Shown here in pieces: positions 2,972 to 46,622 of a stretch of DNA of 64,000 bases. The notes below the pieces were generated by a model. The model did no database searches and was not told the DNA's origin. It was given only the letters and a program-made list of their open reading frames with translations. Origin of the DNA: Prevotellaceae bacterium UBA1746 (GTDB lineage Bacteria > Bacteroidota > Bacteroidia > Bacteroidales > Bacteroidaceae); assembly GCA_905369775.1 (NCBI GenBank), contig CAJPJR010000002.1:44427-108426 (forward strand), in the 5' to 3' direction. The translations under genes and the position numbers were made by a program. Numbering within the stretch: position 1 is the stretch's first letter; the number at the start of each line of letters is the position of its first letter.

Positions 2972-4846
2972 TTGAAAACATTCGCCGAACTGGGCTTAAA
3001 GGAACAGATCCTCAATGCCATCACCGAAATAGGCTACGAACAACCCACTCCCGTGCAGGCCGCGGTGATTCCCGTCCTCCTGGGCGAGGAAAACACCGAC
3101 GATACCGCCGACGGCGCCGCCGTTCCGACGCAAGACATCATTGCGCTGGCACAAACCGGCACCGGAAAAACGGCGGCCTACGGACTTCCCGTGCTCCAAA
3201 ACGTGGAAGCCGACGACCGCAGCACGCAGGTGGTCATTCTCAGCCCGACGCGTGAACTTTGTCTCCAAATTGCCGACGACCTCAAGGACTACAGTCGATA
3301 CATTGACGGCTTGCACGTGGTGGCAGTCTACGGCGGTGCGGGCATCGAAAGCCAGATTCGCCAACTCCGCAAGGGCTGCCAGATCATTGTGGCCACGCCC
3401 GGACGCCTCATCGACCTCATTCATCGCGGCGCCGCCCGACTGGAAGCCGTTCGCCACGTGGTGCTCGACGAAGCCGACGAGATGCTCAACATGGGATTCA
3501 CCGAAAGCATCGACGAAATCCTTTCGGCCATCCCGTCCGAGCACCAAACGCTCCTCTTCTCCGCCACCATGGGGCCCGACATTGAGCGCATTGCCAAAAA
3601 CTACCTCCGCGAATACCGCGAAATCGTGGTGGGCAGCCGCAACGAGGGCGCGGAACACGTGAACCACATCTATTATGCGGTGCGCGCACAGGACAAATAT
3701 GCCGCGCTCAAACGCATTGTCGACTACTATCCGCGCATCTATGCCATCATTTTCTGCCGCACCCGCCTCGAAACGCAGGAAGTGGCCGACCACCTCATCC
3801 GCGACGGCTACAGCGCCGAGGCTTTGCACGGCGATTTGGCCCAGGCGCAGCGCGATCTCACCATGCAGAAGTTTCGCACACACCGCACGCAACTCCTCGT
3901 GGCCACCGACGTGGCGGCGCGCGGCCTCGATGTGAACGAGCTCACCCACGTGATCAACTACGGACTGCCCGACGACGTGGAGAACTACACCCACCGTTCC
4001 GGGCGCACCGGCCGTGCAGGCAAGCGCGGCACCTCGATTTCCATCATCCACCTCCGCGAGAAGGGGAAGGTGCGCGTCATTGAGCGCGTGATCGGCAAGA
4101 AGTTTGAGGTCGGAACCCTCCCCGAACCGAAGGAAATCTGCACGAAACAACTCTACAAGGTGATCGACAATCTCGAACACACCGAGCCCGACGAGGAGCA
4201 AATCGCGCCCTTCCTGCCCGAAGTGATGCACAAACTCGAGTGGCTCACGAAGGAGGAACTGGTCAAACGCTTGGTGCAACAGGAATTCGGCCGATTCCTC
4301 ACCTACTATGCCGACGCTCCCGAAATCGTGCAGCCCACCGCGCGCGAAGAACGCGAGGAGAAGGGCAACAAACGCGACCGACGCGACGACAAACGGGCAC
4401 GCAATGCCAAGGGAAATCCCGTGGCTGAGGAGGGATACACCCGACTCTTCCTCAACTTCGGTAAGCGCGACAACTTCTTCGCCCGCGAAATCATCAACCT
4501 GGTGAACCGCTATGTGAAGGGAAAGGTGGAGATCGGACGCATCGACTTGCTGAACAACTGCTCGTTCTTCGAGGTACCCGAAGAGCAAGCCGAGCTGGTG
4601 ATGGGCAAAATGGCGAAGGCCAAGGTGGGCGAACGCCGCGTGGTGGTGGATTTCGCCGATCGCGCCGACGGGAAAGCCGACAGCGGCGCACACGGCCCGA
4701 AGGGACGCACACGCCGCAACGAAGATCGATATGCCGACTCACGCAAAAAGAGCAAGCCCAAGGCACGGAAAAACGCGGAACGACGCGAGCAAAACGACAA
4801 AGAACAGCGCTTCGGCAAAGACGATTGGAAGCAATTTTTCGATTGA
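2972..4846 (+). CDS. deaD: DEAD-box ATP-dependent RNA helicase (DeaD/CsdA-like) with C-terminal DbpA-type RNA-binding domain and basic tail; apparent TTG start
   Basis: Q-motif F..LGL...GY..PTPVQ, motif I AQTGTGKTAAY, DEAD box (VLDEADEM), SAT, HRSGRTGRAG; Lys/Arg-rich C-terminus. The ORF begins at TTG 2972, immediately before the conserved FAELGL; no in-frame ATG upstream. Confidence 0.9.
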   Translation: MKTFAELGLKEQILNAITEIGYEQPTPVQAAVIPVLLGEENTDDTADGAAVPTQDIIALAQTGTGKTAAYGLPVLQNVEADDRSTQVVILSPTRELCLQIADDLKDYSRYIDGLHVVAVYGGAGIESQIRQLRKGCQIIVATPGRLIDLIHRGAARLEAVRHVVLDEADEMLNMGFTESIDEILSAIPSEHQTLLFSATMGPDIERIAKNYLREYREIVVGSRNEGAEHVNHIYYAVRAQDKYAALKRIVDYYPRIYAIIFCRTRLETQEVADHLIRDGYSAEALHGDLAQAQRDLTMQKFRTHRTQLLVATDVAARGLDVNELTHVINYGLPDDVENYTHRSGRTGRAGKRGTSISIIHLREKGKVRVIERVIGKKFEVGTLPEPKEICTKQLYKVIDNLEHTEPDEEQIAPFLPEVMHKLEWLTKEELVKRLVQQEFGRFLTYYADAPEIVQPTAREEREEKGNKRDRRDDKRARNAKGNPVAEEGYTRLFLNFGKRDNFFAREIINLVNRYVKGKVEIGRIDLLNNCSFFEVPEEQAELVMGKMAKAKVGERRVVVDFADRADGKADSGAHGPKGRTRRNEDRYADSRKKSKPKARKNAERREQNDKEQRFGKDDWKQFFD

Positions 4847-5112
4847 ACGCAGCCGCGCGTCACAAATGCCCACCGGGCTCCGCACTACCCGATTGTGAGG
4901 AGGCAATACCTACTTTTTGGTGAAAGAATGCGGAGCATAAACGGAAAAAATCGGTAAGTCACCGCGAAACCACTCCGTATTTCCGCTGATTGTCAGCAGT
5001 TTGCAGAGCGTATGCGGTGGAAACCTACGCACAACGGGGGCACATCGCACATCGGGCGCCCACCTGTGCCAAATCACTGCAAATGGGTATTGCCAAAAGT
5101 CAAGAAAGTGCC

Positions 5113-5120
5113 TACCTTTG
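5113..5120 (+). promoter_or_regulatory. Bacteroidota-type -7 promoter box TACCTTTG (TAnnTTTG) inside a 660-nt non-coding gap
   Basis: Exact TAnnTTTG match followed by GC; the nearest downstream gene starts about 390 nt later at 5511. Confidence 0.3.
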
Positions 5121-5510
5121 CAGTGCATTCTGATAGAAGAGTCCGACACTTCGGTGGCGGTTGTCCGTCAGAGTAAGAATTTAAATTGTTATGTCTATGT
5201 TCGAAAGATGGCTGTCCTCAGCGGAGGATGGCCACTTTTGTTTTCCGCCCCGCGGCTACGCGCCGAGACCGCGGAAGCCGACGCTCACAAAGCCCCACGG
5301 CCGAACGAAACAAGGCTTGCAACGAACGAAGGATGCACTGCTACGAACCGACGGCGGGACGAACGGGCAGAAAATGGGCGTCGGACAGACGGAGGTCGGC
5401 TTTTTCGCCGGTCGCATGGGCAGAGTTTTGAAAATATGTTGTTCCTTTGCCACCACACACGGGCGCTGTTGCCCGTTTTCACTCCGCCACACTATTATAA
5501 TATACCGACT

Positions 5511-9916: not shown

Positions 9917-10170
9917 GGCGTTCTCCGAAACAGAGCGGCGGCGCTCCGCAGCCGGGAGCCGATCTCTCGCGGCTACAGCCTTCTCCCACGAGCCGACCGA
10001 CAGTTTGCACGGGGCGGGGCTCGAAAAAGTCACCTGTAGACGCGATAAGCGGAGTAGGTAGATCGATAGGTGGCGCGCGTAGATTCGGCAAGCCCCCTCG
10101 TTCGGCGCAGGGCTCGGAAAAATGCCCATTCGTCGCCCAATAGCGCCACCCAACACCGAGCACGTCGGGC

Positions 10171-10218
10171 AAAAAACGAAGCAAGCACGTATGATCTGTA
10201 CGTGCTTGCTTCGTTTTT
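10171..10218. terminator. strong bidirectional intrinsic terminator (A-run, 15-bp perfect stem, T-run)
   Basis: aaaaaa-cgaagcaagcacgta-tgatctg-tacgtgcttgcttcg-ttttt. Confidence 0.6.
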
Positions 10219-10409
10219 ACGTAAAACAGCCCTTCCTTCCGCGCTCGCTCACACTTTTCTCCGCAGCTTTTGTCCATCGCCTCCGCACACGCTGCACTCC
10301 GAATCGCAAAAAACGCCTGTTATCGGCTTATTCGATAGCAAAAACCACTCTAAACAGATATTTATCTCATTTTTACCACGAAACTCTTGTCGCACTATAC
10401 AAAGAATTC

Positions 10410-10417
10410 ATACCTTT
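10410..10417 (+). promoter_or_regulatory. -7 promoter box TACCTTTG upstream of the first T9SS cargo gene
   Basis: The nonamer TACCTTTGC is identical to the one at 5113; about 115 nt upstream of ATG 10533 within an AT-rich leader. Confidence 0.35.
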
Positions 10418-10532
10418 GCCACGAAAACAGAGCAGAACCTGAGAGAAATCGCCCTCCGCCGGGCGATAACTGCGGGATTTCCGCCCATTTCTCGTAAATC
10501 ATCAATTCAATCGTATAATTCATAAAGCAAAA

Positions 10533-12257
10533 ATGCAGATGAAAAAAAATTACTTACTGCTTTTCTTCATCGCCCTACTCTTCGGGATCGGCACACTCCC
10601 CGGGAGAGCTGATGGAAATAGTGGCATCGATGTAAATTTAGAGTACCACTTCAAAATAGGCAATGGCTACATAAAGAAAAATGGAGCTAGTTTTGATTGT
10701 GTTGCAGACAAGTCGCAAGCTACCGTAATGAAATTTTCTGCCATGAGCAGTGGAACGTCTGTTAAGTTCGGCCCATACATAAACAACAAGTACACAGCTA
10801 TAAGGTATGACAAGAAAGGGAAATTTAGCATAATCGGTAATGACACATTTGAATATGTCACGATTTCCGGAAAGCATTACCTCAAAGCTACAGCTTACGA
10901 TCTCGGATATCTTACAAACGAGAATGGAAAGCTTGTTTTTAAACCTACGGCAACTCCTAATGCAGTTTTCGAGTTTGAGAATAAGAACGGTGATAATTCC
11001 GCAGCAGTCGCTAAGGGTAAAGAGCTAATGAAGACTTTTGCCATGTTTCAATGTATGCAGCACTCCGAAACTGGCGTAGGCGTAATCCGTAATCAATCTC
11101 CCTTAGTGGGCAATGGCTTGGGACAATACCCACTTCCCACATTCAAGGACTGGAAATACACCACAGACAATATGTTCTTGGATGTACATGATAATTTTGC
11201 TCCGGCTACAGTTGACAGTGACATAAGAAATCTGGAAGGTGCAATCAATGCACTAAAAATAACTCCGGTGACAAGCGGATATGTGTACATTACCACAAAA
11301 TCTAAATACGAGCAAGCCATTCGTGACACGACTTCCGGTCCAGGCCATTCGCAGCTTCCTGTAAATGATCAATTGGTTGGTCCCTCTCTGCCCGCGAAAT
11401 ACCTGAAAGCCTCGGATAGGGGCTACACGCTCACGGACAATAAGAGCGAAGCCGCCGTGTTCTACTTCGACGGACAGCACCTTACCGGAATTGACAACGG
11501 TTTCGGACTCGGAACGCCCAGCTACACGCAGACAGAGAATGATCAGAAAGCCGTTATCGCGCAAGGTAAGCTCGAAAAGACCCTCGATGCCGGCAGCTAC
11601 AGCCTCAAAGTGGGCGACAAGTTCGTGAAACTCGACCGCGACAACGGACTCATCCTCTCCACCAGCGAATCGGACAGCCACCTCTTCCTCGAAGAAGCCA
11701 CGAAGTTCACGCTCAACACCGACGAACTCGGCTACATCTCCTTCTTCGCCCCCACCGCAGTGAAAGTACCCGCAGGCGTTGAAGTATATAGCGGAAATAT
11801 CAATGCACAAAACAGCGTGATCACCTTCAACAAGGTAAACACGCAGGAGATTCCCGCCAAAACCGCCGTACTGCTCCGCAAGGTTACAGGTAAGGGCTCC
11901 TTCGAGGTTGAGAAAATCGCCTCTACGACTTCTACTATCGGCAACAACTCCCTCAAAGGCTACACCGTTTCGTCGAGCGATCACCTCAGCAATGCATACG
12001 GTCTCACCGTCGAAAATAACAAACTCGTCTTCAAGCCCTTGACACAAGGCGTCCGTGCCTTCCGCGCTGTCATCTACAGCAACACTGCCGCCGGTGCTCC
12101 CGCCTACTACCCCACTGCTTTTACCCCCGAAGGCATCCAGGGCGTAACCGTTGACGACAATCAGGCAGAAGTCTTCGACCTCGCCGGACGTCGTGTGGAA
12201 GCTCCTGTCAAAGGACAGGTCTACGTCAAGAACGGAAAGAAGTTCATCCAAAAATAA
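10533..12257 (+). CDS. secreted T9SS cargo protein, paralog A (signal peptide plus Por C-terminal sorting domain); N-terminal half is AT-rich
   Basis: MQMKKNYLLLFFIALLFGIGTLPGRADG signal peptide; C-terminus ...VFDLAGRRVEAPVKGQVYVKNGKKFIQK. The internal block GYISFFAPTAVKVPAGVEVY...IPAKTAVLLRK is shared with paralog B. Confidence 0.8.
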   Translation: MQMKKNYLLLFFIALLFGIGTLPGRADGNSGIDVNLEYHFKIGNGYIKKNGASFDCVADKSQATVMKFSAMSSGTSVKFGPYINNKYTAIRYDKKGKFSIIGNDTFEYVTISGKHYLKATAYDLGYLTNENGKLVFKPTATPNAVFEFENKNGDNSAAVAKGKELMKTFAMFQCMQHSETGVGVIRNQSPLVGNGLGQYPLPTFKDWKYTTDNMFLDVHDNFAPATVDSDIRNLEGAINALKITPVTSGYVYITTKSKYEQAIRDTTSGPGHSQLPVNDQLVGPSLPAKYLKASDRGYTLTDNKSEAAVFYFDGQHLTGIDNGFGLGTPSYTQTENDQKAVIAQGKLEKTLDAGSYSLKVGDKFVKLDRDNGLILSTSESDSHLFLEEATKFTLNTDELGYISFFAPTAVKVPAGVEVYSGNINAQNSVITFNKVNTQEIPAKTAVLLRKVTGKGSFEVEKIASTTSTIGNNSLKGYTVSSSDHLSNAYGLTVENNKLVFKPLTQGVRAFRAVIYSNTAAGAPAYYPTAFTPEGIQGVTVDDNQAEVFDLAGRRVEAPVKGQVYVKNGKKFIQK

Positions 12258-12277
12258 GCACAGACACATCTCAAAAT

Positions 12278-12442
12278 ATGAAACAGTATTCTGCACCTCA
12301 GGTAAAGGATGTCGTTCTTCACACGGAGCATGTCATGCTCGACGCCTCTAAAGGAAACGGAAGCATGACACCCGGACAGCAGCACACCACAGAAAAGCAG
12401 CTTGGCAACGACATTTGGAACGACAGCGAAGAAGAACAATAA
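12278..12442 (+). CDS. small acidic protein (54 aa), paralog of the ORF at 14577; not in the supplied ORF track
   Basis: Sits 20 nt after the cargo A stop. MKQYSAPQVKDVVLHTEHVMLDASKGNGSMTPGQQHTTEKQLGNDIWNDSEEEQ; followed by a terminator. It shares MKxYxxPx[LV]x[DE][FV]xLHxEx[IV]M and N[DP]IW[NG]D[DS]E with the 14577 ORF. Confidence 0.45.
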   Translation: MKQYSAPQVKDVVLHTEHVMLDASKGNGSMTPGQQHTTEKQLGNDIWNDSEEEQ

Positions 12443-12484
12443 AAACATCGCGCGTTACCAACGCACACTTACGCGAAACACTTA

Positions 12485-12525
12485 AAAAAGCGCCCGCTCA
12501 CCACAAGGTGACGGGCGTTTTTTTG
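12485..12525 (+). terminator. intrinsic terminator after the small acidic ORF
   Basis: gcccg(c)tcacc-acaa-ggtgacgggc with one bulged base, followed by ttttttt. Confidence 0.6.
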
Positions 12526-12924
12526 TGCCCCTACCGCACCCGCGCCGCGCATTTTTCCCTCGATCGCCTCACGCGCTTGGGCAAAACACAAAAAGTCCCC
12601 AACTTTTGGTTGCATTTCAGCTTTTCATGCGGAAATGATAGGCGAGAACAAGCAAAACACGTCATTTTTCAAAACAAATCCTACTTCACCGGCAAATTAC
12701 TTGGCATTTTGCTAAGGAAAAACTACATTCGCAATGTGTTGACGCCCTGAACGGCACAACAGCCCCACTTCGTGTTGCGAAAAATGCCATCAGCGGTAGA
12801 CACCGGTCCACTTCCGCTGCGATCTATCCCAGCCATCGAAGAGCGCTTGCCATCGAGCCGCATCAACACCCCAACCGCCGGGCGAAAGCCCCCAACCGTG
12901 ACCACATCGACCTAATCCATCCAC

Positions 12925-14562
12925 ATGAAACAACTCTACAAACTCTTCGCCTGCACCCTCTTCGCGGCAGGAGCCTGCGTTGGCGCGGCGGCACAACAGC
13001 TGCCCTTCAACGAAAGCGACACTTACTTCGTCAAAGTCGGCAACCCCGCCGATGGGAAAAACGGCTACATCCACTACAACCCCGAAGGCAATTACTTCGA
13101 TCTCGTCACTTCCAAATGGGAAGCCGACCCCGTCCACTTCCATATCGCGGGCAACGAATTCCAACTCGTCTACATCGGTGACGGCAGTGTGACCCTCGGC
13201 GCCGACAACTCCGACAATGGCACACGCCCCGGCGCAGCCGAAGGAAACGGCATGAAGTTCACGCTCGAAAAGAAAGGAGAAGTACTCAACTTCCGCTCCA
13301 CTATCGGTGCGAAAGGGTATCTCAACAACTATGCCGAGCAGGGAAAGCTCGCATTCTGGCAGGCCAACGGACCGGGATCCACCGTCGTCGTCGAAAAAGC
13401 CGATTACCAAACCCTCTACAACGAGGCCAAAGCCCAGTTCAAGCGCTACGCCGAAAACAATCATCTCTTCGGCACCACCGTAGGCACCTATTCTCGCCCC
13501 GGCAATCTGCAAGCCGCCATGAATGCCTACAACAACCCGCCCACCCAACCGCAGAAATACCAAGAAGAATTCAACAAACTGCGAGTCGCCCTCCGACAGA
13601 TTCATCTCAACATGCCCCAAGCAGGCGAATTCTTCCGCATCCGTTCCACAGCCGCCGGGCAAAGATTCCTCAGCATCGCCCCCGGCACGAACGGCATCCT
13701 CAAGGTGGTGCCCACAGCCGACGAACAAACGCTCTTCTACTACGACGGAGAGCACCTCACAGCCTACGCCACCGGCCAAGGATTGGCCAACGAAGCCAAC
13801 AATGTCAAGCCCGCCACCCTCGGCGACGCCGTGAATCGGGCCAGCTTCGCCGAAGGACGCGGCGACGGCACCTACTTAGTCACCACCGGCGACCGCACCC
13901 TCCTCTTCCGCGGCAACGAAGAAGTGACCCGCAGCGGGATGAACATGCCCAAAAGTTGGCCGGCGCAATACCTCGACCTCGTGCCCGTCGACGAAATTTC
14001 CCTCCACATCGGCGAAACCGGCTATGCCACCTTCTTTGCGCACCAAGCCATGAAGCTCAACGACTCGAGTGTCAAGATCTACGTGGCCGAACGCAACGGT
14101 ACAAACAGCTTGCAACTCACCGAACTCACCAAGGGAATCATTCCGGCCGCCACGGCTGTGATCCTCAAGGCCGACGGAGCGAAGACCCTCACCCTCTCGC
14201 GCACCGATGAAAAGGGCGATACGGAGAAAACCACCCACAACGTACTCAAAGGCTACGGCTATTCGCAACGAGCCACTGCAGGCAAAGCCGTGTATGCCCT
14301 CGCCCTCAATCCCGAAAACAACAAGGTCGAATTCGGAAAACTCGACGACGGCGTAGTGCTCCCCGCATTCAAAGCGTGCATCGAGCAGGATCCGGCCGCA
14401 GGCAACGCCGCCCCGCTCTTCATCGCCCTGCCCACGGCCGTACAACAGGCGAAGCGCTCAACTGTAGCTCCCGCCACCTACGACCTCAGCGGACGCCGTG
14501 TGCAACAAACCGCCAAAGGCCAACTCTACGTCCGCAACGGCCAAAAATTCGTTCAGCAATAA
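12925..14562 (+). CDS. secreted T9SS cargo protein, paralog B
   Basis: Signal peptide MKQLYKLFACTLFAAGACVGAAAQQ; C-terminal ...TYDLSGRRVQQTAKGQLYVRNGQKFVQQ. Blocks shared with paralog A: FYYDGEHLT/FYFDGQHLT, GYATFFAHQ.../GYISFFAPT..., IPAATAVILK/IPAKTAVLLRK, NVLKGY/NSLKGY. Confidence 0.8.
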   Translation: MKQLYKLFACTLFAAGACVGAAAQQLPFNESDTYFVKVGNPADGKNGYIHYNPEGNYFDLVTSKWEADPVHFHIAGNEFQLVYIGDGSVTLGADNSDNGTRPGAAEGNGMKFTLEKKGEVLNFRSTIGAKGYLNNYAEQGKLAFWQANGPGSTVVVEKADYQTLYNEAKAQFKRYAENNHLFGTTVGTYSRPGNLQAAMNAYNNPPTQPQKYQEEFNKLRVALRQIHLNMPQAGEFFRIRSTAAGQRFLSIAPGTNGILKVVPTADEQTLFYYDGEHLTAYATGQGLANEANNVKPATLGDAVNRASFAEGRGDGTYLVTTGDRTLLFRGNEEVTRSGMNMPKSWPAQYLDLVPVDEISLHIGETGYATFFAHQAMKLNDSSVKIYVAERNGTNSLQLTELTKGIIPAATAVILKADGAKTLTLSRTDEKGDTEKTTHNVLKGYGYSQRATAGKAVYALALNPENNKVEFGKLDDGVVLPAFKACIEQDPAAGNAAPLFIALPTAVQQAKRSTVAPATYDLSGRRVQQTAKGQLYVRNGQKFVQQ

Positions 14563-14576
14563 AACATCATCACCGC

Positions 14577-14786
14577 ATGAAATCCTATACTACTCCCCGC
14601 CTCGAGGAATTCCAACTCCACGGCGAACCCATCATGGGCCTGACTTCCTTGAAAATGAACTCCAGTTTCCGCGTCCAGCAAAACAACCCTGTGCTCACCA
14701 ACGAGGAATTTGTCAATCCCATCTGGGGCGATGACGAATCGGCCGACGACGACAACAGCTCTCTCGGCGAATTTTCAGGCTTCTAA
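14577..14786 (+). CDS. small acidic protein (69 aa), paralog of the ORF at 12278
   Basis: Sits 14 nt after the cargo B stop. MKSYTTPRLEEFQLHGEPIMGLTSLKMNSSFRVQQNNPVLTNEEFVNPIWGDDESADDDNSSLGEFSGF. It is the in-frame C-terminal portion of the listed ORF 14376..14786. Confidence 0.5.
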   Translation: MKSYTTPRLEEFQLHGEPIMGLTSLKMNSSFRVQQNNPVLTNEEFVNPIWGDDESADDDNSSLGEFSGF

Positions 14787-15357
14787 CGCCCTACCCCCTC
14801 TTCTCCGCATGCAGCATTCCGCGCTCCGTCGCCGGACAACCCCTGCAGTCATGCGGCATCGTGTCGAAGCGGCGAAGAGTTCCGCCTCACCTCGGCCTCC
14901 CGTTTCCTTCAACGGCTCAGACAGTCACCGGACTGTCCGAGCCGTTTTTTGTTTCTCCGCCGCAACCGGTCGTCCCCTTCGTCGCTTTTGCCGACGCGTC
15001 GCAGCAATTACCGCCGGAACCGTCACTGCCGCCTCGCAGCAGGCACAGCGCAACAATCCATTCGGCAGCAGCTCCTCCCGGTGCCTGCGGTGCGAACGGC
15101 CACGACCGAAAACGACGCCACGTCGCCCATCCATCGCGAAGCAGACGCGAAGTGCCGCCGGAAAAAGGGGGGCATCGGACGGAAACACACCCACTTTTTC
15201 GTGATTTCCCGCAACTTTTTCGAGCAAGTCCCCGTGCACAGCCCAATGCACCCCGACAACGCCCACGATCAGTCCGCCCCACAGCGTCTTTGCGGGCGAA
15301 AACACCATCCGCCCTCACGTTTTTTGCCTTCAGATTTGCATCTTTGCCCATTCCTCC

Positions 15358-15365
15358 CTATCTTT
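15358..15365 (+). promoter_or_regulatory. -7 promoter box TATCTTTG immediately upstream of the small His/Cys-rich membrane protein
   Basis: TAnnTTTG consensus. It is preceded by a cluster of TTTGC repeats (ttttttgcc, gatttgcat, atctttgcc, atctttgcg). Confidence 0.35.
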
Positions 15366-15375
15366 GCGGCAATAC

Positions 15376-15858
15376 ATGTCCGCAAAACTTCGCACCCTCC
15401 GTCGTCAAGTGGCCTTGGCTTGGATTCTTCTCCTCGCCCTGCTGCCGCAATTGGTGGTGAAAACCTTTCACTACCACGACAGCGCGGTGCCAACGGAGCA
15501 CATCGGCCTCAACGCCGACGGACAAGGCGCCGAGTGCATCGCCTGCCTCCGCGCCACCGCAGCCGCCACCGCCCGCGATGGGCAGCACGCGGGCGAAAAC
15601 GGCACACCCGCGCCCGCCCTCGCGCACCGAACGCACCGCCCATGCCATCGGCACCACCATTTGCCGGGGCAAGTGCCCGGCGACAAGCACGACAATTGCA
15701 GCATCTGCCATTTCGTGCCCGCCCCCTGCACCGTGCCCACGCTGCCTCAATTTTGCTTTTTCGTTTCCACCGCGGAAACACCCTTTCTTTCCGATCAACC
15801 CTCGATCGCTCACACGGTGATTGCTCGCGCAGTGCTGCGCGGCCCACCGACTGTCTGA
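15376..15858 (+). CDS. small membrane-anchored His/Cys-rich protein (160 aa), DUF2946-like; putative metal-binding partner of the downstream TonB-dependent receptor
   Basis: MSAKLRTLRRQVALAWILLLALLPQLVV gives a basic stretch plus a transmembrane helix. After it come HYHD, ECIACL, CHRHHH, CSICHF and PC, a layout typical of DUF2946 proteins found next to TonB-dependent metal receptors. The listed ORF starts at TTG 15364; ATG 15376 is preferred. Confidence 0.45.
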   Translation: MSAKLRTLRRQVALAWILLLALLPQLVVKTFHYHDSAVPTEHIGLNADGQGAECIACLRATAAATARDGQHAGENGTPAPALAHRTHRPCHRHHHLPGQVPGDKHDNCSICHFVPAPCTVPTLPQFCFFVSTAETPFLSDQPSIAHTVIARAVLRGPPTV

Positions 15859-16391: not shown

Positions 16392-18722
16392 ATGTCCAAA
16401 ATCCTTTTCCCGGGGCTGTTGCTGAGCGCAGCCGTGGTGATTCCCGCCACCACCCGCGCCGCCGAACCCCAACCCGTGGGCGCACCGCGCCTGCTCGTCA
16501 CCGACCGCGACAGCGGTCTCCCCGTTTCGGGTGCCGTGGTGCGCGGCGGCGGCAAAATCTGGCGCTCCGACGAGACCGGTCTGCTCGTGCTCACCGAAAA
16601 CGCCCTGCACGGCGACAGTCTCACGGTGAGTGCCGTGGGCTACACCGATCGGCGCGTCGCCACCGCCGAAGTGCGCAGCCACCGCCCCCTGCGCGTCGAA
16701 CTCATCGCCCTGACCAATCGCCTCAACGAGGCCGTGGTGCAAACCGGGCGCATCGTCCATTCGGTCAACACCGCCACCCAAAGTATTTCGGCGGCCGAGG
16801 TGCAGAAAAATCTGGGCAACTCTTTCGCTTCGGCCCTCGAACAAATCAAAGGCATGAGCATGGTGCAAACCGGTGCCACCATTGCCAAACCCGTTCTCCA
16901 CGGCATGTACGGCACGCGCCTACTCATCATGAACAACGGCGTGCGGCAACAGGGCCAACAGTGGGGCGTGGATCACGCGCCGGAGCTCGATGCCAACTCT
17001 GCCGGGCGCATCAATGTGGTGAAAGGCGCGGAAGCCGTGCGCTACGGCGCGGAGGCGCTCGGCGGCGTGATCCTGCTCGACGGCAAAGCCCTGCCCTACA
17101 CGCGTTCGCAACCCGAGGGCTATCTCTCCACGCTCTACGGCAGCAACGGCCGGCGCGCGGCACTGACCGGATCGGTCGATGCGGGCCTCCCCTTGGCGGG
17201 CGGTCGCGCAGCGTGGCGCCTACAAGGCACCTACCTCAACGGCGGCGACCGCTCCACTGCCCACTATCTGCTCAACAACACCGGCGTGCGCGAAGCCAAC
17301 GGCTCCGTGGCCTTCGGCTGGAAGCGCGACCGCTTCGAAGCCGACGGGTACTACAGCCTGTTTTCCACCCGCATCGGCGTGCTCTTCAGCGCTCAAATGG
17401 GCGACGAACAGCTCCTCCGCGAGCGTATCCGCCTCGGCCGCCCGACGGAATTCTACCCTTGGACGCGCCAAATCGACTACCCTTACCAGAAAGTGGTGCA
17501 CCAAGTGGCCAAACTCCACACGCGCTACACCCTCTCCTCGGGTGGGCATCTCGAGTGGCAGGCGGCCTTTCAGCACGACGACCGCCGAGAATTCAACCAG
17601 CGCCGCAATTTCCGCTCGCACGTGCCCACGCTCGACCTCCAATTGGAGAGTTTCCAAACCGACGGCCGTTGGCAGCAGTCGTATGCCGACCATTGGACCA
17701 CCGAGGCGGGGCTGTTCTATGCCAATGTCAAGAACACCAACACGCCGGGCACGGGCGTGGTGCCCATCATCCCGAACTACGTGCAGCAAAATGCCGGTGT
17801 GTTCGCCATTCAGAAGTATTCGGGCGACAATTGGGGGGCCGAAGCCGGTGCGCGGCTCGACCACCAGCGCCTCAACGCCCGCGGCATCGATCTCTACGGC
17901 CGCCCTTATGGGAAATTGGACCACTACAACAACCTCACTTACACCGTCGGCGCGCACGCGCACCTCTTGCCCGGGCTCGATGTTTTGAGCAATGTGGGAT
18001 CGGCCTGGCGCGCGCCGCACGTACATGAGTTGTACAGCAACGGCGTGGAGCACTCGAGCGGACTTTTTGCCCGCGGCGATGCCAACCTCCGCCCCGAGGT
18101 GAGCACCAAATGGATCACTTCGCTGCGCTATGCCGACCACGGTTTCACGGCCTCCGTCGACGGCTATGTGCAGTGGATCGACAACTATATTTTCGACGCG
18201 CCGACCTCCGAAGTCATCACGATGGTGTCGGGCGCCTACCCGGTTTTCCAATATCGTGCCACGGATGCCTTCTTCCGCGGGGTGGATGCCGAGGCCAAAT
18301 GGCAGATTTTGCCGCAACTCGCCGTGGAAGGCGGTGCCGCGTGGGTGCGGGCCGACGACCGCACGAAACAGCGCCCGTTGCCCTACATTCCGTCGTTTCG
18401 TGTCTCCGATGCCGTCACGCTCCAATTGGGCAGCATCTCGCACGTGCATGACGTCTATGTCAAGGCTTCGCACAAATATGTGGCGAAACAAACGCATTTC
18501 GATCCCGCCACCGACTTGATCAACTTCACGCCCGCGGCCTATCATCTTTTCGGCGCCGAGGTCGGTGCCAATTGGGTGCTGCCCGACGGTCGGAAGATCA
18601 AGTTTCTGCTCACGGCCGATAATCTTTTCAATCGCGAATACCGCGAATACACCAACCGCTTCCGCTACTACGCCCACGATCTCGGTCGTGACGTTCGCTT
18701 CATGCTCACTTGGGAGTTTTGA
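16392..18722 (+). CDS. TonB-dependent outer-membrane receptor with N-terminal carboxypeptidase-regulatory-like domain
   Basis: 776 aa beginning at the internal ATG of ORF 14949..18722. Signal peptide MSKILFPGLLLSAAVVIPATTRAAEP; CarbopepD-like LLVTDRDSGLPVSGAVV; plug region (NEAVVQTG...ISAAEVQK...); C-terminal TonB-box-partner beta-strand ending ...RDVRFMLTWEF. Confidence 0.9.
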   Translation: MSKILFPGLLLSAAVVIPATTRAAEPQPVGAPRLLVTDRDSGLPVSGAVVRGGGKIWRSDETGLLVLTENALHGDSLTVSAVGYTDRRVATAEVRSHRPLRVELIALTNRLNEAVVQTGRIVHSVNTATQSISAAEVQKNLGNSFASALEQIKGMSMVQTGATIAKPVLHGMYGTRLLIMNNGVRQQGQQWGVDHAPELDANSAGRINVVKGAEAVRYGAEALGGVILLDGKALPYTRSQPEGYLSTLYGSNGRRAALTGSVDAGLPLAGGRAAWRLQGTYLNGGDRSTAHYLLNNTGVREANGSVAFGWKRDRFEADGYYSLFSTRIGVLFSAQMGDEQLLRERIRLGRPTEFYPWTRQIDYPYQKVVHQVAKLHTRYTLSSGGHLEWQAAFQHDDRREFNQRRNFRSHVPTLDLQLESFQTDGRWQQSYADHWTTEAGLFYANVKNTNTPGTGVVPIIPNYVQQNAGVFAIQKYSGDNWGAEAGARLDHQRLNARGIDLYGRPYGKLDHYNNLTYTVGAHAHLLPGLDVLSNVGSAWRAPHVHELYSNGVEHSSGLFARGDANLRPEVSTKWITSLRYADHGFTASVDGYVQWIDNYIFDAPTSEVITMVSGAYPVFQYRATDAFFRGVDAEAKWQILPQLAVEGGAAWVRADDRTKQRPLPYIPSFRVSDAVTLQLGSISHVHDVYVKASHKYVAKQTHFDPATDLINFTPAAYHLFGAEVGANWVLPDGRKIKFLLTADNLFNREYREYTNRFRYYAHDLGRDVRFMLTWEF

Positions 18723-18790: not shown

Positions 18791-19543
18791 ATGCGAAAAT
18801 CCTTTTCTCTCTTCCTCTTCTTCCTCCTCGGCTGTGCGACCCTGTTGCCCGCCGCTTGCTCGCTCGAACCCGAAGCACCGGTGGACGAACGCCGCAGCAA
18901 AGACCACGGCGACCCCACCCGTGTGGTGCTCACCCTGCGCCACGGTACGTGGGACGGCACGCATTTCACCCCCGAAACGGGCGAAACGGCCGACACCCGC
19001 GAACAGACCATCACCTATGCCCTGCAACCCGAATTGGGCTGGGCGCCGCTCTCGGGCACACCGGCCGGTTTCGTCGTGCGACGCGCCGAAGGGACGCAAC
19101 ATGCCTACGAGTTGCGCATCCGCTACTTCGACATTTCGGGCGAAGACATCACCCGGCAGTTTGTAGACAACGGGCAGGACAAAATCCACCAGCACTTTTT
19201 CATCCCCGATGCCGTGTACACGCCCGACAGCACCGCGCGTCCGGACGAGGCCCGCAGCAATCGCGTCTACACCTACACGTATGCCGACACCACCCCGTGG
19301 TACGACGAACTTTCCACTCCCGGCACGCGACTGACGGGCGATGTCAATCCGATTGGTTTCAAGGGCGTGCTGCAATTCAAGGAGGCGCGCGACTTGCACA
19401 TCTACATTCGCCTGATGCACGCCCGCGTTTCGAAATTCAACAAGCGCGACCACAGCCTTTCGCCCTTCTATGCGCCCACACCGGGGCAGCTGCAGGAGGA
19501 TGCGTGGGACATCGCCATGCGCTTCCCCGTGCAGTGTAGGTAA
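18791..19543 (+). CDS. lipoprotein, TonB-receptor-associated, paralog 1 (function unknown)
   Basis: Lipobox LLGCATLLPAACS. Shares IRYFDISGEDITRQFVDNGQDKIHQHFFIP, PIGFKG..QFK and SPFYAPTPGQL with the next gene. Confidence 0.75.
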   Translation: MRKSFSLFLFFLLGCATLLPAACSLEPEAPVDERRSKDHGDPTRVVLTLRHGTWDGTHFTPETGETADTREQTITYALQPELGWAPLSGTPAGFVVRRAEGTQHAYELRIRYFDISGEDITRQFVDNGQDKIHQHFFIPDAVYTPDSTARPDEARSNRVYTYTYADTTPWYDELSTPGTRLTGDVNPIGFKGVLQFKEARDLHIYIRLMHARVSKFNKRDHSLSPFYAPTPGQLQEDAWDIAMRFPVQCR

Positions 19544-19626: not shown

Positions 19627-20658
19627 ATGTTCAGAAAAATCTTTGGCGTGCTCCTGCTCGCCACCGCAGCTTTCGCCTTCGGCGCCTGCGACAAGGACAA
19701 CAACGAAAAGCGACAGCCCACACCGCAGCCTCAACCTGCGCCCACCGAAGAAGTGGAACCGGTGCGTGCCGAACTCACCCTGGCCGGCGGACACTTCCAC
19801 GGCGTGGCTTTCCACCAAGATGCCGACGCGCAGGGCATTACTTATAAGAAAGCTGTGCAACACCTCACCTTTGTGCGCAAAGGCGACACTTGGGAACTCG
19901 AGAAAGGCAGTGCCGATGCCTTCCGCGTGTTGAGTTCCAGGCAATATCTCTATCCTTACGGTCTTTGGATCAAGTATTACGATGCCAAGGGCCAAGACAT
20001 CACGCCCATCATTGCTGAGAACGGCGAAAGTCGCGCACACCAGCACTTCTTTGTGCCCTCGGAGGTGAAGCCAACCTTCGATGGAACCGCCGAAAAAGAC
20101 GATCAAATCGCCGATTCGCTCCTCAACTATGTCTATATGGACACCAATCCGACCAACGGCATCCTGAAATCGACCACCGACAAGGCAACGGGGCAAACGA
20201 TTCCCGCAGCGAAACTCACCGGATCGAAGGTGGTGGGACAAAATGCCCTCGGCGACATTTTCGAACCGCTTAACCCCATCGGCATGAAGGGTTTCTTCCA
20301 GTTTAAGAAACCGCGCAAATCGTTCGTGCTCACCGTGACGCTCTTCCACTTCGACGGCGATGCTAAATTCCCCGGCGGCAAACCTTCGCCCTTCTTCGCC
20401 CCCACGGCCGGACAGTTGGCCACGGGTCACCGCGAAGTGGTGCTCCGCGTGCCGTTTGTGGTCTACGCCTCGCGCGAAGAAACGGGCGATTGGGAAACCC
20501 TCGACGCTGTGCCTTACGCCCAACTCCGCCCGGCCGAACAGCGCTTGGTGCTTTCCACCGCTCGCGCCTATGGCATCTCCGAAGAACTGGCCACCAAAGA
20601 TTGGTTTGCCCACATTCTCGGCGAAGTGGACAAGGAGAGCGGTGCGCTCTGGTTCTGA
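19627..20658 (+). CDS. lipoprotein, TonB-receptor-associated, paralog 2 (function unknown)
   Basis: Lipobox AFAFGACDKDNN. IKYYDAKGQDITPIIAENGESRAHQHFFVP, PIGMKGFFQFKKPR and SPFFAPTAGQL align with paralog 1; it has an additional about 60-aa C-terminal extension. Confidence 0.75.
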   Translation: MFRKIFGVLLLATAAFAFGACDKDNNEKRQPTPQPQPAPTEEVEPVRAELTLAGGHFHGVAFHQDADAQGITYKKAVQHLTFVRKGDTWELEKGSADAFRVLSSRQYLYPYGLWIKYYDAKGQDITPIIAENGESRAHQHFFVPSEVKPTFDGTAEKDDQIADSLLNYVYMDTNPTNGILKSTTDKATGQTIPAAKLTGSKVVGQNALGDIFEPLNPIGMKGFFQFKKPRKSFVLTVTLFHFDGDAKFPGGKPSPFFAPTAGQLATGHREVVLRVPFVVYASREETGDWETLDAVPYAQLRPAEQRLVLSTARAYGISEELATKDWFAHILGEVDKESGALWF

Positions 20659-42862: not shown

Positions 42863-45800
42863 TTAGAAATCACCGTCTCCTTCGTCTTCACCGCCATTGC
42901 CGGGGGCAGCAGCAGCGGCACGACGCGCATTCATCGCGGAGATGAGCACATGGCCGGCGGTGGTGCGCTGCAACTGGTCGATGCGCTTGGTGTAGACGCC
43001 GACAAGCGGTGACTTACACTTCTGCAAACCTTCGATGGCCATGCCCAAGATTTGATACTGCTGCATGATGTCGCCGGACATCGACGAGAGACGGCTTTCG
43101 GAGAAGCTGTTGTACCAGTCGAAATAGGCCAGCGAACGATCGGCCACGGCCTTCAAGATTCTTTCGGCCTGCTTGGTCTGGCCCAACTCGCGGTAGCATT
43201 CGGGCATCATCAGCAGACCGGTCTTCGAATCGATGCCGAGCGACCACACTTCGTAGGGCACTTGACGCTGAGGCAGCACTTGTTCGCATTTTTCCAAGGC
43301 CTTCAGGGCTTTGTCGCGCTTGCCTTCCTTGATCAACTGCTGGGCCAACTGGGCGAAACGCATGCGGTGCGTGTAGCAGGTGCGCATCACGGTTTGATCG
43401 ACGTAGACTTTCGGATCGGCAATGTGGCCGTAGCGGAACTTCTTCATGAAGTTGTCGTACATGCGTTCGGTGTCTACACCGCTGTCACCGAGTTTGAAGG
43501 GCGTGACACGGGCGGCCAAACCTTCGAGCATCAAGTAGTTGTCCAAACCGGCCTGGTTGTCGCCGCCGAGTGTGGTGCTCATGTAGAGCGGACGGGTCCA
43601 ATTGTGGTGAGCCAGCATTTCGTAGACCATCATCTCGCTCTTGGTGAGGATGCGCTTGCCGCGAAGCGAGATAAACATCTTGTCGGGGATGCTGTCCTTG
43701 CCGTGGGGGAGCTTCATTCCGCTGCGCAATACGGCGGCTTTGTCCACGGTCATGACAATGGAGTCGGTGGGCACAAAGCCAATCTCGGGATTACGCACGA
43801 AATTGTCGATGATGTATTTCAGTTCGAACGGATCGTCCTTCTTGCCCTCGGCTTGGAAATCGTGTTTGAGCTGGAGTAGCTGCTCTTTCGCCTCGGGTTT
43901 GATGAAGAACATGTCGTGTCCCATGTTGTCAACGTACTCCCAACGCTTCCAAGTGATGGGCAATGAGGGACTATTCCACGCCGGACGACGCATTTGATCG
44001 ATATACCAGTCGGTTTGCAGGTAGGAGAGGTTGCAAACGCGGGCGTCGGTGCGATGACCTTCCACGTCTTGGTTGTACCACAGGGGGAAGGTGTCGTTGT
44101 CGCCGTTGGTGAAGATGACGGGATCGCCCTTTTCATCGAGCGAATAGAGATAGTTCAAACCAAAATCGCGGGCGGCGGTGCGACCGGAGCGGTCATGGTC
44201 GTCCCAAGTCTGGCTGACCATCTGCAAAGGTACCGCCAAGGCGATGACCGAAGCGATGCCGGCGGAGGCAAGATGGGGCAATTTGCCGAAACGGCGCAAT
44301 CCTTCGACGATGGCCGCGATGCCCAAACCGATCCATATGGCAAAGGCGTAGAAAGAGCCCGCATAGGCGTAGTCACGTTCGCGCGGTTCGCTCGGGGTTT
44401 GGTTCAAATAGAGGATAATGGCCAAACCGGTCATGAAGAAGAGGAAGAAGACAACCCAGAACTGCTGGATGCCTTTCTTTCCGCGGTAGGCTTGCCAGAA
44501 CATGCCGAGGAGTCCGAGCAACAAGGGCAGGCAGTAGAACACGTTGTGTCCCTTGTTTTCGCGCAGATCGGCGGGGAGCTTCGACTGATCGCCGTAGAGG
44601 GCGTTGTCAATGAAGGGGATACCGGTGATCCACTGGCCGTGATCGAGCTCACCGTAGCTTTGTACGTCGTTCTGACGGCCGGCAAAATTCCACATAAAGT
44701 AGCGCCAATACATGAAATTCACCTGGTAGGAGAGGAAGAAGCGGAGGTTGTCCCACTGCGAAGGCATCTCGCCGGTGAAATCGTAGGATTGGCCGTCGTA
44801 TTCTCCGTGCACATCCACCGGTTTCGTGTCGATACCGCCCAACCATTGCTGGTAAAGACCGGCATGGGCGCGGGAGAACATGCGAGGGAAGAGCATTTTT
44901 TGTTCAGAAGGGTAAACGGGTTGGCCATTTACCTCGACAATGTCATATTTGTCGGACTCGTTCGCATTTTTCTTCTCGTGACGCTGCACGCTTTCCTCCT
45001 TGCCGTAACCCACAGCTTGCGAGGTAAAGGCCTCACCATAGAGGAGGGGTTTCTGACCATACTGCTCGCGGTTCAGGTAAGTGCCGAGCGAGAAGATGTC
45101 TTCGGGCGAGTTTTGGTCCATCGGCGTGTTTTGCGTGGAGCGCAACACGATGAGTGCGTAGGACGAATAGCCGATCATGAGCATCAACATGCAGAGCAGC
45201 GAGGTGTTGAGCGCGCGTTTGCGCACCACAAATTGGCCCTTTTTCTTCCAGCTCAGGAGGAGAGCCAGCACTGCCAGCACAAAGAAACCGAGCAACAGGG
45301 GCGTAACATAGCCTTTGCCGTAGAACGGAATGCCCAACATGCCCACACTGGCAACGTAAAGCGCGACGCTGAGTGTACGATTGTTTTGGAGGGTCGACCA
45401 CAAAGCGGCACTCACCACCGCAATCAAGGCGAGGATGTAGATGATCATACCGCTGTTGAACGGCAAACCAACCAAGTTGACGAAGAACAACTCGAACCAA
45501 CCGCCCACTTTCACGATGCCGGGAACCACACCATAGAGCACGGCGGCCACAAGAATCACGCTGAGAACGAGGGCAATGAGCGAACCTTTCAAATTGGCGT
45601 CGGGCCATTTCTTGTAATAGTAGACCAAGACGATGGCGGGCAAGCACAGCAAATTGAGCAAGTGCACGCCGATGGACAAGCCGGTGAGGTAGAAAATCAG
45701 CACAATCCAGCGATCGGCGTGCGGTGAATCCGCGTTGTCTTCCCACTTCAGGATGAGCCAGAACACCAAAGCCGTGAACATCGACGAATAGGCGTAGACT

Positions 45801-46234
45801 TCGCCTTCCACTGCGGAGAACCAGAACGTGTCGCTCCACGTGTAGGCCAAAGCACCGGCCAAGCCGCAGGCCAAAATCGTCACCGTTTGTCCCACGGTTT
45901 CGACGATGCCGTCGGTACAGAGCAACTTACGCGCCAAATGCGTGATGCTCCAGAACAAGAACAGGATACAGAAGGCCGAGAGCAGGGCACTCATCACATT
46001 GATCCAGTAGGCTACTTGCTCGGGACCCGAGGCAAAGAGCGAAAAGAACTTGCCCGTGAGCATGAAGAAGGGCGCTCCGGGCGGGTGACCCACTTCCAAT
46101 CGATAGGCCGTTGTGATGAATTCCGGACAGTCCCAGAACGATGCTGACGACTCGACCGTGGATACGTAGGTGAAGGCGGCCACTAAGAAGACCAACCAAC
46201 CCACGACGTTGTTGAGGAGTTTGAATTGTTTCAT
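42863..46234 (-). CDS. DUF2723 (TMEM260/PMT-like) polytopic membrane protein with C-terminal TPR region; putative protein glycosyl(mannosyl)transferase
   Basis: The MKQFKLL... start is preferred over the listed upstream Met. ASFWDCPEFITTAYRLEVGHPPGAPFF is the hallmark N-terminal DUF2723 motif; many TM helices; C-terminal soluble helical-repeat domain. Family assignment is from memory. Confidence 0.7.
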   Translation of the reverse strand: MKQFKLLNNVVGWLVFLVAAFTYVSTVESSASFWDCPEFITTAYRLEVGHPPGAPFFMLTGKFFSLFASGPEQVAYWINVMSALLSAFCILFLFWSITHLARKLLCTDGIVETVGQTVTILACGLAGALAYTWSDTFWFSAVEGEVYAYSSMFTALVFWLILKWEDNADSPHADRWIVLIFYLTGLSIGVHLLNLLCLPAIVLVYYYKKWPDANLKGSLIALVLSVILVAAVLYGVVPGIVKVGGWFELFFVNLVGLPFNSGMIIYILALIAVVSAALWSTLQNNRTLSVALYVASVGMLGIPFYGKGYVTPLLLGFFVLAVLALLLSWKKKGQFVVRKRALNTSLLCMLMLMIGYSSYALIVLRSTQNTPMDQNSPEDIFSLGTYLNREQYGQKPLLYGEAFTSQAVGYGKEESVQRHEKKNANESDKYDIVEVNGQPVYPSEQKMLFPRMFSRAHAGLYQQWLGGIDTKPVDVHGEYDGQSYDFTGEMPSQWDNLRFFLSYQVNFMYWRYFMWNFAGRQNDVQSYGELDHGQWITGIPFIDNALYGDQSKLPADLRENKGHNVFYCLPLLLGLLGMFWQAYRGKKGIQQFWVVFFLFFMTGLAIILYLNQTPSEPRERDYAYAGSFYAFAIWIGLGIAAIVEGLRRFGKLPHLASAGIASVIALAVPLQMVSQTWDDHDRSGRTAARDFGLNYLYSLDEKGDPVIFTNGDNDTFPLWYNQDVEGHRTDARVCNLSYLQTDWYIDQMRRPAWNSPSLPITWKRWEYVDNMGHDMFFIKPEAKEQLLQLKHDFQAEGKKDDPFELKYIIDNFVRNPEIGFVPTDSIVMTVDKAAVLRSGMKLPHGKDSIPDKMFISLRGKRILTKSEMMVYEMLAHHNWTRPLYMSTTLGGDNQAGLDNYLMLEGLAARVTPFKLGDSGVDTERMYDNFMKKFRYGHIADPKVYVDQTVMRTCYTHRMRFAQLAQQLIKEGKRDKALKALEKCEQVLPQRQVPYEVWSLGIDSKTGLLMMPECYRELGQTKQAERILKAVADRSLAYFDWYNSFSESRLSSMSGDIMQQYQILGMAIEGLQKCKSPLVGVYTKRIDQLQRTTAGHVLISAMNARRAAAAAPGNGGEDEGDGDF

Positions 46235-46622
46235 TTCACACTTGAGTGATAATGCAAATGATGGGTAGGATTGCTTTGAAAAGATCGCGATGTGCACGCA
46301 CCGACTGCGTCGAAATGGGGTTTCGACGCTAAGACGAGACGCGCTCTCGTGCAAAAATACAAATTACCACGGACTATTGCGATTCGCAACACGCTTTTTT
46401 TCACCGCGCTCGCCCCCTGATAATCAGAAGCAAAGCGCGTCATACACTCCGCGTACCGTGCTTTCCGACCACCGAACGCCGATACGCTCTCGATGAAATC
46501 GGGCAAAATGAAACGTCTTTTGGACTTTCGCACAAAATGTCCTACTTTTGTACACATCGAACGGGCATCTGTTTTTTTTCACCGCACCTGTCCGCCGCCG
46601 TTTCTCACTAACGCGCACCACC

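Follow-up and report, generated by a model that had tools for sequence, protein, structure and literature searches.

Why should genes for secreted surface proteins be followed, twice in succession, by a very short gene that encodes no export signal? The question is raised by a 64,000-nt stretch of DNA from Prevotellaceae bacterium UBA1746, here called the window, in which two genes for putative type IX secretion system (T9SS) cargo, cargo A at positions 10533-12257 and cargo B at 12925-14562, are each followed by a short open reading frame (ORF), small a at 12278-12442 and small b at 14577-14786. All four lie on the + strand, as do the other features of the two cassettes and the gene fragment at 2-172 described below, and the spacing between cargo and small ORF is 20 nt for the A/a pair and 14 nt for the B/b pair, in agreement with an earlier sequence-only reading of the window, which also quoted the N- and C-terminal peptide strings of the small ORFs exactly. 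In Prevotella, Alloprevotella and rumen Prevotellaceae the chief adhesins, proteases and glycoside hydrolases on display are T9SS cargo, and on the cargo side the system is currently thought to need only a Sec signal and a C-terminal domain (CTD), with the exception of type B CTDs, which go with PorP/SprF. That a small protein is conserved and linked to cargo implies that the biogenesis, sorting or regulation of these surface proteins includes a step that has gone unrecognised. We show here that the small ORFs form a family, that they are coding, that they are linked in operons to cargo genes and that they are associated specifically with cargo carrying a domain that we term module X. Loci retrieved for comparison are denoted by L-numbers.

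The two small proteins, of 54 aa for small a (MKQYSAPQVKDVVLHTEHVM … GNDIWNDSEEEQ; net charge -5, isoelectric point (pI) 4.8) and 69 aa for small b (MKSYTTPRLEEFQLHGEPIM … NPIWGDDESADDDNSSLGEFSGF; net charge -8, pI 4.2), are homologous, as the sequence-only reading had held. They share 35% identity over their whole length (BLASTP E 2e-8) and, in the shuffled control that it had called for, their Smith-Waterman score of 75 was reached by none of 5000 shuffles (22.5 +/- 4.4, maximum 48, z = 11.9). Between the window and a sister species the proportion of synonymous differences (pS) in both small ORFs was 0.72, which is near saturation, that of nonsynonymous differences (pN) was 0.23-0.28, and the ratio of nonsynonymous to synonymous rates (dN/dS) was 0.12-0.16, a substitution pattern indicating that both evolve under purifying selection between species. 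Within the species, changes in small a cluster in the middle of the protein, where dN/dS is about 0.9, and both ends are fixed. Both small ORFs have been called as genes, with synteny kept, in public metagenome assemblies of the same species (L001-L006) and of related species (L007-L011 and L014), and orthologues of small a lie directly 3' of cargo A in all related loci. A readthrough or frameshift extension of the cargo was rejected because the gap is in frame at 12 of 34 loci, roughly as often as expected by chance, and cargo and small ORF are in every case separated by a stop codon; an RNA element in place of a protein was rejected because an Rfam scan of the region yielded sub-threshold noise only and conservation is at the amino acid level.

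Thirty-four close relatives of the small ORFs were found by a word-indexed search, and an exhaustive hidden Markov model (HMM) search of 1.8 billion cluster representatives with a strict small-ORF profile produced 13 matches. The best nine of these 13, together with P0042, are family-like, with lengths of 53-69 aa and the same N- and C-terminal boxes, while three marginal matches do not look like members, two being large repeat proteins and one a 96-aa ORF lying across the 3' end of a small b gene. The wider family was reached only by searching from the cargo side, and not with the strict small-ORF profile. Its members are 44-85 aa long and acidic (medians: pI 4.5, charge -4), and their N-terminal motif can be written MKKxY(I/T)xPxxxVVxLxxExLLxxS. 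In an alignment of 37 small ORFs (A6) the Tyr of MKKxYxxP is invariant and the Pro near-invariant and, counted from the Tyr, there are hydrophobic residues at +7, +8 and +10, Glu at +13, Leu or Met at +15 to +17 and Ser at about +20. Downstream lies a variable low-complexity linker and then a near-invariant Trp beside acidic residues, and the last residue is often aromatic.

Judged from its residue pattern, the N-terminal motif could form beta-strands. AlphaFold2 (AF2) assigned no secondary structure at all to small b, with a predicted local distance difference test (pLDDT) value of 58.7 and a predicted template modelling (pTM) score of 0.13, and the small proteins are predicted to be intrinsically disordered. 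No signal-peptide h-region, lipobox or transmembrane segment was found in the small proteins, whose maximum 9-aa hydropathy has a median of 1.24 as against 2.83 for the cargo signal peptides, and 26 of the 37 sequences have no Cys. Searches with Pfam (39 small ORFs) and NCBIfam (12 small ORFs) gave nothing above noise, known precursor, leader and secretion-chaperone models included, tblastn gave no annotated examples on plasmids, and the literature search found nothing describing these small ORFs, small ORFs beside cargo or a cytoplasmic T9SS cargo factor. The small protein represents an undescribed family.

The extent of the pairing became apparent from a scan for the cargo tail pattern, limited to one genome per species, which yielded 76 cargo loci, nearly all of them from Prevotellaceae. 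In about half of these, an ORF of 44-85 aa starts at a median distance of about 20 nt past the cargo stop codon (about 34 loci measured), and small-ORF and cargo homologues, whose co-occurrence the sequence-only reading had suggested checking, are thus seen together across the Prevotellaceae. The nearest genomes are metagenome-assembled genomes of uncultured Prevotellaceae, and Alloprevotella isolates hold more distant relatives. Carriers in culture include Alloprevotella sp. OH1205_COT-284 (L020), Alloprevotella sp. Lung230 (L022) and Prevotellamassilia timonensis An873 (L048). The passengers encoded upstream of the small ORF are mutually unrelated and include BspA-type leucine-rich repeat (LRR), ricin-type lectin, immunoglobulin (Ig)-like and InlB-repeat domains.

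All ORFs of the retrieved loci and the window were searched with three HMMs, one for the CTD, one for the approximately 190 aa on its N-terminal side, where module X lies, and one for the small family. Module X and a small ORF occurred together for 50 of the short-CTD ORFs, module X occurred alone for 12, a small ORF alone for 2, both of which were truncated genes, and 42 had neither; when the cargo C-termini were clustered at 60% identity, the corresponding numbers were 23, 9, 1 and 33 (Fisher exact p 1.8e-9). At the level of gene content these counts show that the small ORF tracks module X, lying directly before the CTD cleavage site, and not the CTD alone; it follows about 70% of cargo with the module-X architecture, and every match of the small-family HMM in about 660 kb lies 3' of a cargo gene or a cargo remnant. 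The pairing, which had been taken to be specific to the two paralogues of the window, is in fact family-wide across the Prevotellaceae and is predicted by module X. Tandem cassettes also occur in L061, L041 and L051, and the strict small family adjoins cargo in a differing genomic context too (L012). When the ORFs of 120 aa or more from 81 loci (L012-L092) were clustered all against all, no recurrent third gene emerged around the cassettes. At L032 a PorP/SprF gene (4472-5410; PF11751, E 6.6e-21, first 110 aa) lies directly after a module-X short-CTD cargo gene that has no small ORF. A further arrangement was seen at L034 (1846-2210), where two small-family ORFs lie back to back behind one cargo gene and the second abuts the next cargo gene. 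A small ORF that is a mimic or fragment of module X or the CTD was also considered and rejected, since hhalign comparison of A6 with an alignment of the X-CTD region (A4) showed zero similarity.

Cargo A, with 574 aa, begins with a signal peptide, which is followed by a passenger, by module X and, after a linker, by a short T9SS CTD; cargo B is its 545-aa paralogue. Both proteins are unmatched in Pfam and NCBIfam at E<=1, including by PF18962 (Por_Secre_tail) and TIGR04183, and these two models also miss ten related cargo (E<=0.01), so that the standard CTD HMMs miss short-CTD cargo in 12 of the 12 Prevotellaceae proteins tested. A 'short CTD' class of T9SS cargo was defined in Prevotella intermedia by Ye et al. 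2025 (Open Biol, PMC11969387). It extends 40-51 aa (43-55 in the discussion of that paper) past a PT/GI cleavage motif with Ile at +2, and carries a motif B (Tyr or Phe, an invariant Gly and a basic residue) 1-6 aa before a motif D (GxY-I/V), followed by a basic motif E. In the same study, cleavage sites were measured for five short CTDs and C-terminal glycosylation was recorded on six cargo, with CTDs of the short as well as the long type; of the seven strands of a long CTD, four are missing from the short CTDs, which are predicted to form a single three-stranded sheet after a flexible linker with the cleavage site.

The tail of cargo A (12132-12257 including the stop codon) comprises 41 aa past a PE/GI cleavage-type motif, TPE/GIQGVTVDDNQAEVFDLAGRRVEAPVKGQVYVKNGKKFIQK, and that of cargo B (14437-14559; AVQQAKRSTVAPATYDLSGRRVQQTAKGQLYVRNGQKFVQQ) has PT/AV and then 41 aa, with Val replacing Ile. 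Across the family, the CTD segment spans 42-53 aa (median 44) when counted from the proline (cleavage site plus about 2 aa), the CTD HMM matches end within 4 aa of the ORF end, and the cargo N-termini are hydrophobic and signal-peptide-like. The motifs of cargo A read VFDLAGRRV-EAPV-KGQVYV-KNGKKFIQK, and those of relatives YDLSGRRV…KGIYVKNGKKFIVK. The CTD is basic (pI 9.5) and the last 30 residues of the cargo have a net charge of +3 to +7. The N-terminal signal peptide, the cleavage motif, the spacing of motifs B and D, the basic motif E and adhesin-like passengers such as LRR are all shared with the P. intermedia cargo, whereas motif D of cargo A and B, GQ(V/L)Y, is one residue longer than GxY and cargo B differs at the +2 position. 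These features support the classification of cargo A and B as T9SS cargo of the short-CTD type. The Por/T9SS sorting domain of the sequence-only reading therefore holds as a T9SS signal, but it is a 41-aa short CTD that escapes PF18962 and TIGR04183. The P. intermedia paper deals with cargo only and mentions neither module X nor a downstream small ORF.

Module X lies at 11694-12086 in cargo A, corresponding to residues of about 388-518, and at about 13996-14391 in cargo B, and is predicted to be a beta-sandwich of about 130 aa placed directly before the CTD cleavage linker. In the AF2 model of the last 200 aa of cargo A, built from a 26-sequence alignment (pLDDT 73, pTM 0.66), this sandwich occupies residues of about 14-144 (pLDDT 80-90), a disordered linker at 145-170 holds the cleavage motif, and the short CTD shows two clear strands (189-192 and 195-198) together with isolated bridge residues (pLDDT 74-79). 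A third homologue search returned only fragments of at most 343 aa, which sufficed for this alignment but not for a census. An NCBI entry for a partial cargo-A protein of 324 aa, with 97% identity across the 200 aa in common, is named 'hypothetical protein [Prevotellaceae bacterium]'. The small protein and module X constitute two uncatalogued families, which pipelines label hypothetical, and the small ORF may be missed altogether.

Each cassette is, on the sequence signals, a two-gene operon laid out in the order promoter, cargo, small ORF and terminator, because cargo A has a -7 box upstream whereas the small ORFs have none, and each small ORF is followed by a hairpin with a T-tract. The Bacteroidota-type -7 promoter box, TACCTTTG, which fits TAnnTTTG, was located by pattern scan at 10411-10418, which is 115 nt upstream of the start codon of cargo A, and the same scan found no TAnnTTTG box directly upstream of small a or small b. 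The intrinsic-terminator-like hairpins, identified by sequence and fold, are GCGCCCGCTCACC-ACAA-GGTGACGGGCG followed by T7 at 12484-12524, which would end the cargo A/small a operon, and CGGCTCAGACAGTC-ACCG-GACTGTCCGAGCCG followed by T6 at 14913-14950, which would end that of cargo B and small b. A hairpin equivalent to the first of these sits 3' of small a in L014, and small b of that locus seems to have a promoter-like box of its own, with its motifs still kept. The G+C content of the first cassette (window 10001-13000) is 0.45-0.53, as against 0.57-0.66 in the flanks, and that of the second is near the local average; the low value could mean that cargo A was acquired horizontally or has recombined.

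The two cassettes were originally described as tandemly duplicated. Their paralogy stands, but the description was overstated in that the likeness of cargo A and cargo B is confined to the C-terminal approximately 290 aa (32% identity, E 6e-28) and none is detectable between the N-terminal halves. Orthologues of cargo A in related species are 44-52% identical, whereas A and B are 28-33% identical, and both a-type and b-type small ORFs are found in at least three species. Because the A orthologues are closer to one another than A is to B, and both small types have this distribution, the A/a and B/b paralogy is evidently old, predating the speciation of at least three related species, and the passengers differ.

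In sister species cargo B is cut to a 3' remnant that encodes the last 66-180 aa, with 67-75% identity, and lies just upstream of an intact small b. Such remnants were found in L008 (8590-8790), L010, L018 (6481-7023) and L019 (6364-6573); three are uninterrupted and one has an internal in-frame stop. Cargo B is wholly gone from L014 and L017. Loss of the gene seems to reach the 3' end, which encodes the CTD, last of all. Because small b is conserved where cargo B is degraded or gone, a strict one-to-one dependence between cargo and small ORF is disfavoured. The functional pair of the sequence-only reading has therefore survived as a conserved unit across the Prevotellaceae but not as a dedicated one-to-one partnership, given that small b outlives cargo B.

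How, then, might the small protein act? We infer, tentatively and with the chances rather against it, that it is a co-translated cytoplasmic escort for the C-terminal region of the cargo. The first gene of a cassette would produce a Sec-exported, T9SS-secreted surface protein with a variable passenger, module X, a disordered linker carrying a PorU-type cleavage motif, and a basic short CTD of 41-47 aa. The small protein, made from the same mRNA beside the emerging C-terminus of the cargo, would bind this C-terminal region in the cytoplasm, with its N-terminal motif perhaps engaging module X by beta-augmentation and its acidic and aromatic tail contacting either the CTD, which is basic, or an export factor. 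In this role of escort or holdase, it would keep the last-translated and fast-folding region export-competent until Sec translocation, and it could also serve paralogous module-X cargo in trans. An escort is favoured because the small protein lacks an export signal, combines disorder with two short motifs, is encoded right after the region that it tracks and needs no third gene; that it is linked to the C-terminal part, which the cargo have in common, and not to the passenger is suggested because the passengers (LRR, ricin-type lectin, Ig-like and InlB-repeat) differ.

Several considerations weigh against the escort. Module X is acidic (pI 4.7), so that electrostatics would favour the CTD as the binding site, and yet short-CTD cargo without module X have no small ORF. 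Moreover, 9 of the 32 module-X cargo clusters have no small ORF, and small b is intact, with its motifs, without a full cargo B in L008, L014 and L017-L019. Cytoplasmic chaperones dedicated to Sec-dependent substrates are, to our knowledge, rare, and no cytoplasmic T9SS chaperone emerged from the literature search. The association of module X with the small ORF could in part reflect common descent of the 3' cassette and not physical interaction, and the position of the motif at the extreme N-terminus also fits a leader or an export signal.

A leader and core peptide, which this last point invokes, is the main rival, and we think it unlikely. The conserved N-terminal approximately 24 aa would be a leader for an exporter or maturase encoded elsewhere, and the Trp/acidic C-terminus would be liberated to serve as a signalling peptide or a modified one, resembling either Phr/PapR or a ribosomally synthesised and post-translationally modified peptide (RiPP), with production coupled to adhesin expression. 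The layout, with a conserved N-terminal motif including YxxP, a fast-varying middle and a conserved C-terminal Trp box, fits such a precursor, as do the small-residue or Ser stretch (LLAGSG-like) after the N-terminal motif, the within-species dN/dS of about 0.9 in the middle of small a, the persistence of small b without its cargo and a gene order, small after larger, that recalls the familiar Rap-Phr and PlcR-PapR pairs. Set against this, a maturase, peptidase or transporter recurs near none of about 35 cassettes, and there is none among the Pfam-scanned ORFs of the window, which are described as housekeeping genes; NCBIfam and Pfam gave zero precursor matches, the peptides contain hardly any Cys and lack a Sec signal, and it would be unusual for a precursor to be present in numerous copies per genome, every copy tied to one cargo architecture. 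That the small ORFs are exported leader-core peptides co-released with one class of T9SS adhesin, serving as a Phr/PapR-like signal or as an acceptor or modulator of the PorU attachment reaction, we regard as improbable; if true, it would constitute the first peptide-based communication or attachment-control system in Bacteroidota. A partner that reaches the periplasm or surface by an unconventional route, and acts there on module X, the short CTD, PorV or PorU attachment, perhaps by supplying the missing CTD strands or as an acceptor or regulator of attachment, is hardly likely. The absence of four of the seven long-CTD strands from short CTDs leaves room for it, the hydrophobic pattern at Tyr +7, +8, +10 and +15 to +17 could form beta-strands, and module X is next to the attachment site, but signal peptides, lipoboxes and transmembrane segments are absent from the small proteins, which share no profile similarity with the X-CTD region and never accompany short-CTD cargo without module X, which argues that the CTD itself does not need them; moreover, the P. 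intermedia short CTDs were modelled as binding PorV without any partner (PMC11969387).

There is also little chance, in our estimation, that translation of the small ORF, or its product, tunes cargo mRNA stability, termination or expression, for example as a feedback on adhesin or T9SS load, without binding the cargo. Such a role would suit the tight spacing to the cargo stop codon and the strong terminator 40-125 nt downstream; it sits poorly with conservation at the amino acid level (an invariant Tyr and near-invariant Pro and Trp) among sequences of 15-30% identity with unrelated DNA, with the dN/dS of 0.12-0.16, with the absence of an Rfam match and with the small b of L014, which retains its motifs behind a promoter-like box of its own. 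Many immunity genes are, like these, small, acidic and directly downstream of a gene for a secreted protein, and the sequence-only reading had offered an immunity or antagonist protein, which would neutralise the activity of its secreted neighbour, among its candidate functions. This is now the least likely of them and, in our view, very improbable indeed, as the passengers are unrelated adhesin-like domains with zero toxin matches, the motifs of the small protein are constant whatever the passenger, and the protein is disordered and has no export signal; the chaperone or escort and the precursor peptide, which it had also offered, are retained as candidates.

The window contains the 3' end of a third cargo gene at 2-172, outside any cassette, which had been noted earlier for a tail of the same kind and for the absence of a following small ORF, and both points hold. 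Its short-CTD-type tail is VIFDLNGRRVEKAERGVYIINGVKTVVH (CTD HMM E 3.5e-9), and module X was not detected in the visible 56 aa. The fragment ends ...GVKTVVH, with His where the family has Lys or Arg, and the PT/GI motif is not recognisable in the visible 56 aa. Cargo A itself is highly polymorphic in public data, its best 120 matches falling into separate clusters of 92-100% identity that are nearly all single-member, a pattern typical of a surface protein under diversifying pressure. The same type of tail (IYDLSGRLVTTPLQKGIYIRNGKKYV) is present in PDB entry 4kca, chain A, at residues of about 640-682, a GH43 arabinanase construct from a rumen metagenome; because the crystallised construct ends in a short-CTD tail, this arabinanase is probably a Prevotellaceae T9SS cargo.

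Downstream of the second cassette, a TonB-dependent receptor (16392-18722) is preceded by a 164-aa His/Cys-rich ORF (15364-15858) that has a single hydrophobic segment, is unmatched in Pfam and may encode a metal-uptake accessory protein. This pair of genes is kept in L014 and L017-L019. Beyond the receptor lie conserved ORFs of 250 and 343 aa (18791-19543 and 19627-20658) without a Pfam family and, further along on the - strand (42863-46354), a 1163-aa protein with a TMEM260-like protein O-mannosyltransferase domain (PF11028, E 8.6e-78).

Each of three groups of known systems resembles the cassettes in some respects. In Rap-Phr and PlcR-PapR a pro-peptide gene lies downstream of a larger partner, and PqqA and the YxxP leaders of lasso peptides are RiPP leaders that are recognised by a RiPP recognition element (RRE). 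The cassettes share with these a tiny ORF right after a larger gene, a conserved N-terminus with YxxP and a C-terminal box past a variable spacer. Phr and PapR, however, have Sec signal peptides and cytoplasmic receptors, whereas the small proteins have no Sec signal; RiPP precursors sit beside maturases, whereas no maturase recurs near the cassettes; and, beyond YxxP, the lasso spacing (Leu at +5, Gly at +9 and Thr at +15 from the Tyr) is not conserved. Small acidic secretion chaperones encoded beside their substrates are exemplified by the class I chaperones of type III secretion systems (T3SS) and by VirE1, which serves VirE2. They are likewise small, acidic and in an operon with the substrate, a region of which they are thought to hold secretion-competent in the cytoplasm. 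They bear no sequence or profile relationship to the small family, and they are folded and belong to Sec-independent systems, whereas the substrates here are Sec-dependent. Within the T9SS itself, cargo with type B CTDs in Flavobacterium johnsoniae have a cognate PorP/SprF-like gene downstream. PorP/SprF is an outer-membrane protein of about 300 aa with a signal peptide, in contrast to the disordered acidic proteins of 44-85 aa found here, which have none, and, although it normally goes with type B CTDs, the PorP/SprF gene of L032 follows a module-X short-CTD cargo gene at the position where a small ORF is lacking. The two arrangements nevertheless have in common that a dedicated partner is encoded right behind a T9SS cargo gene and that the pairing depends on the type of C-terminal region that the cargo carries.

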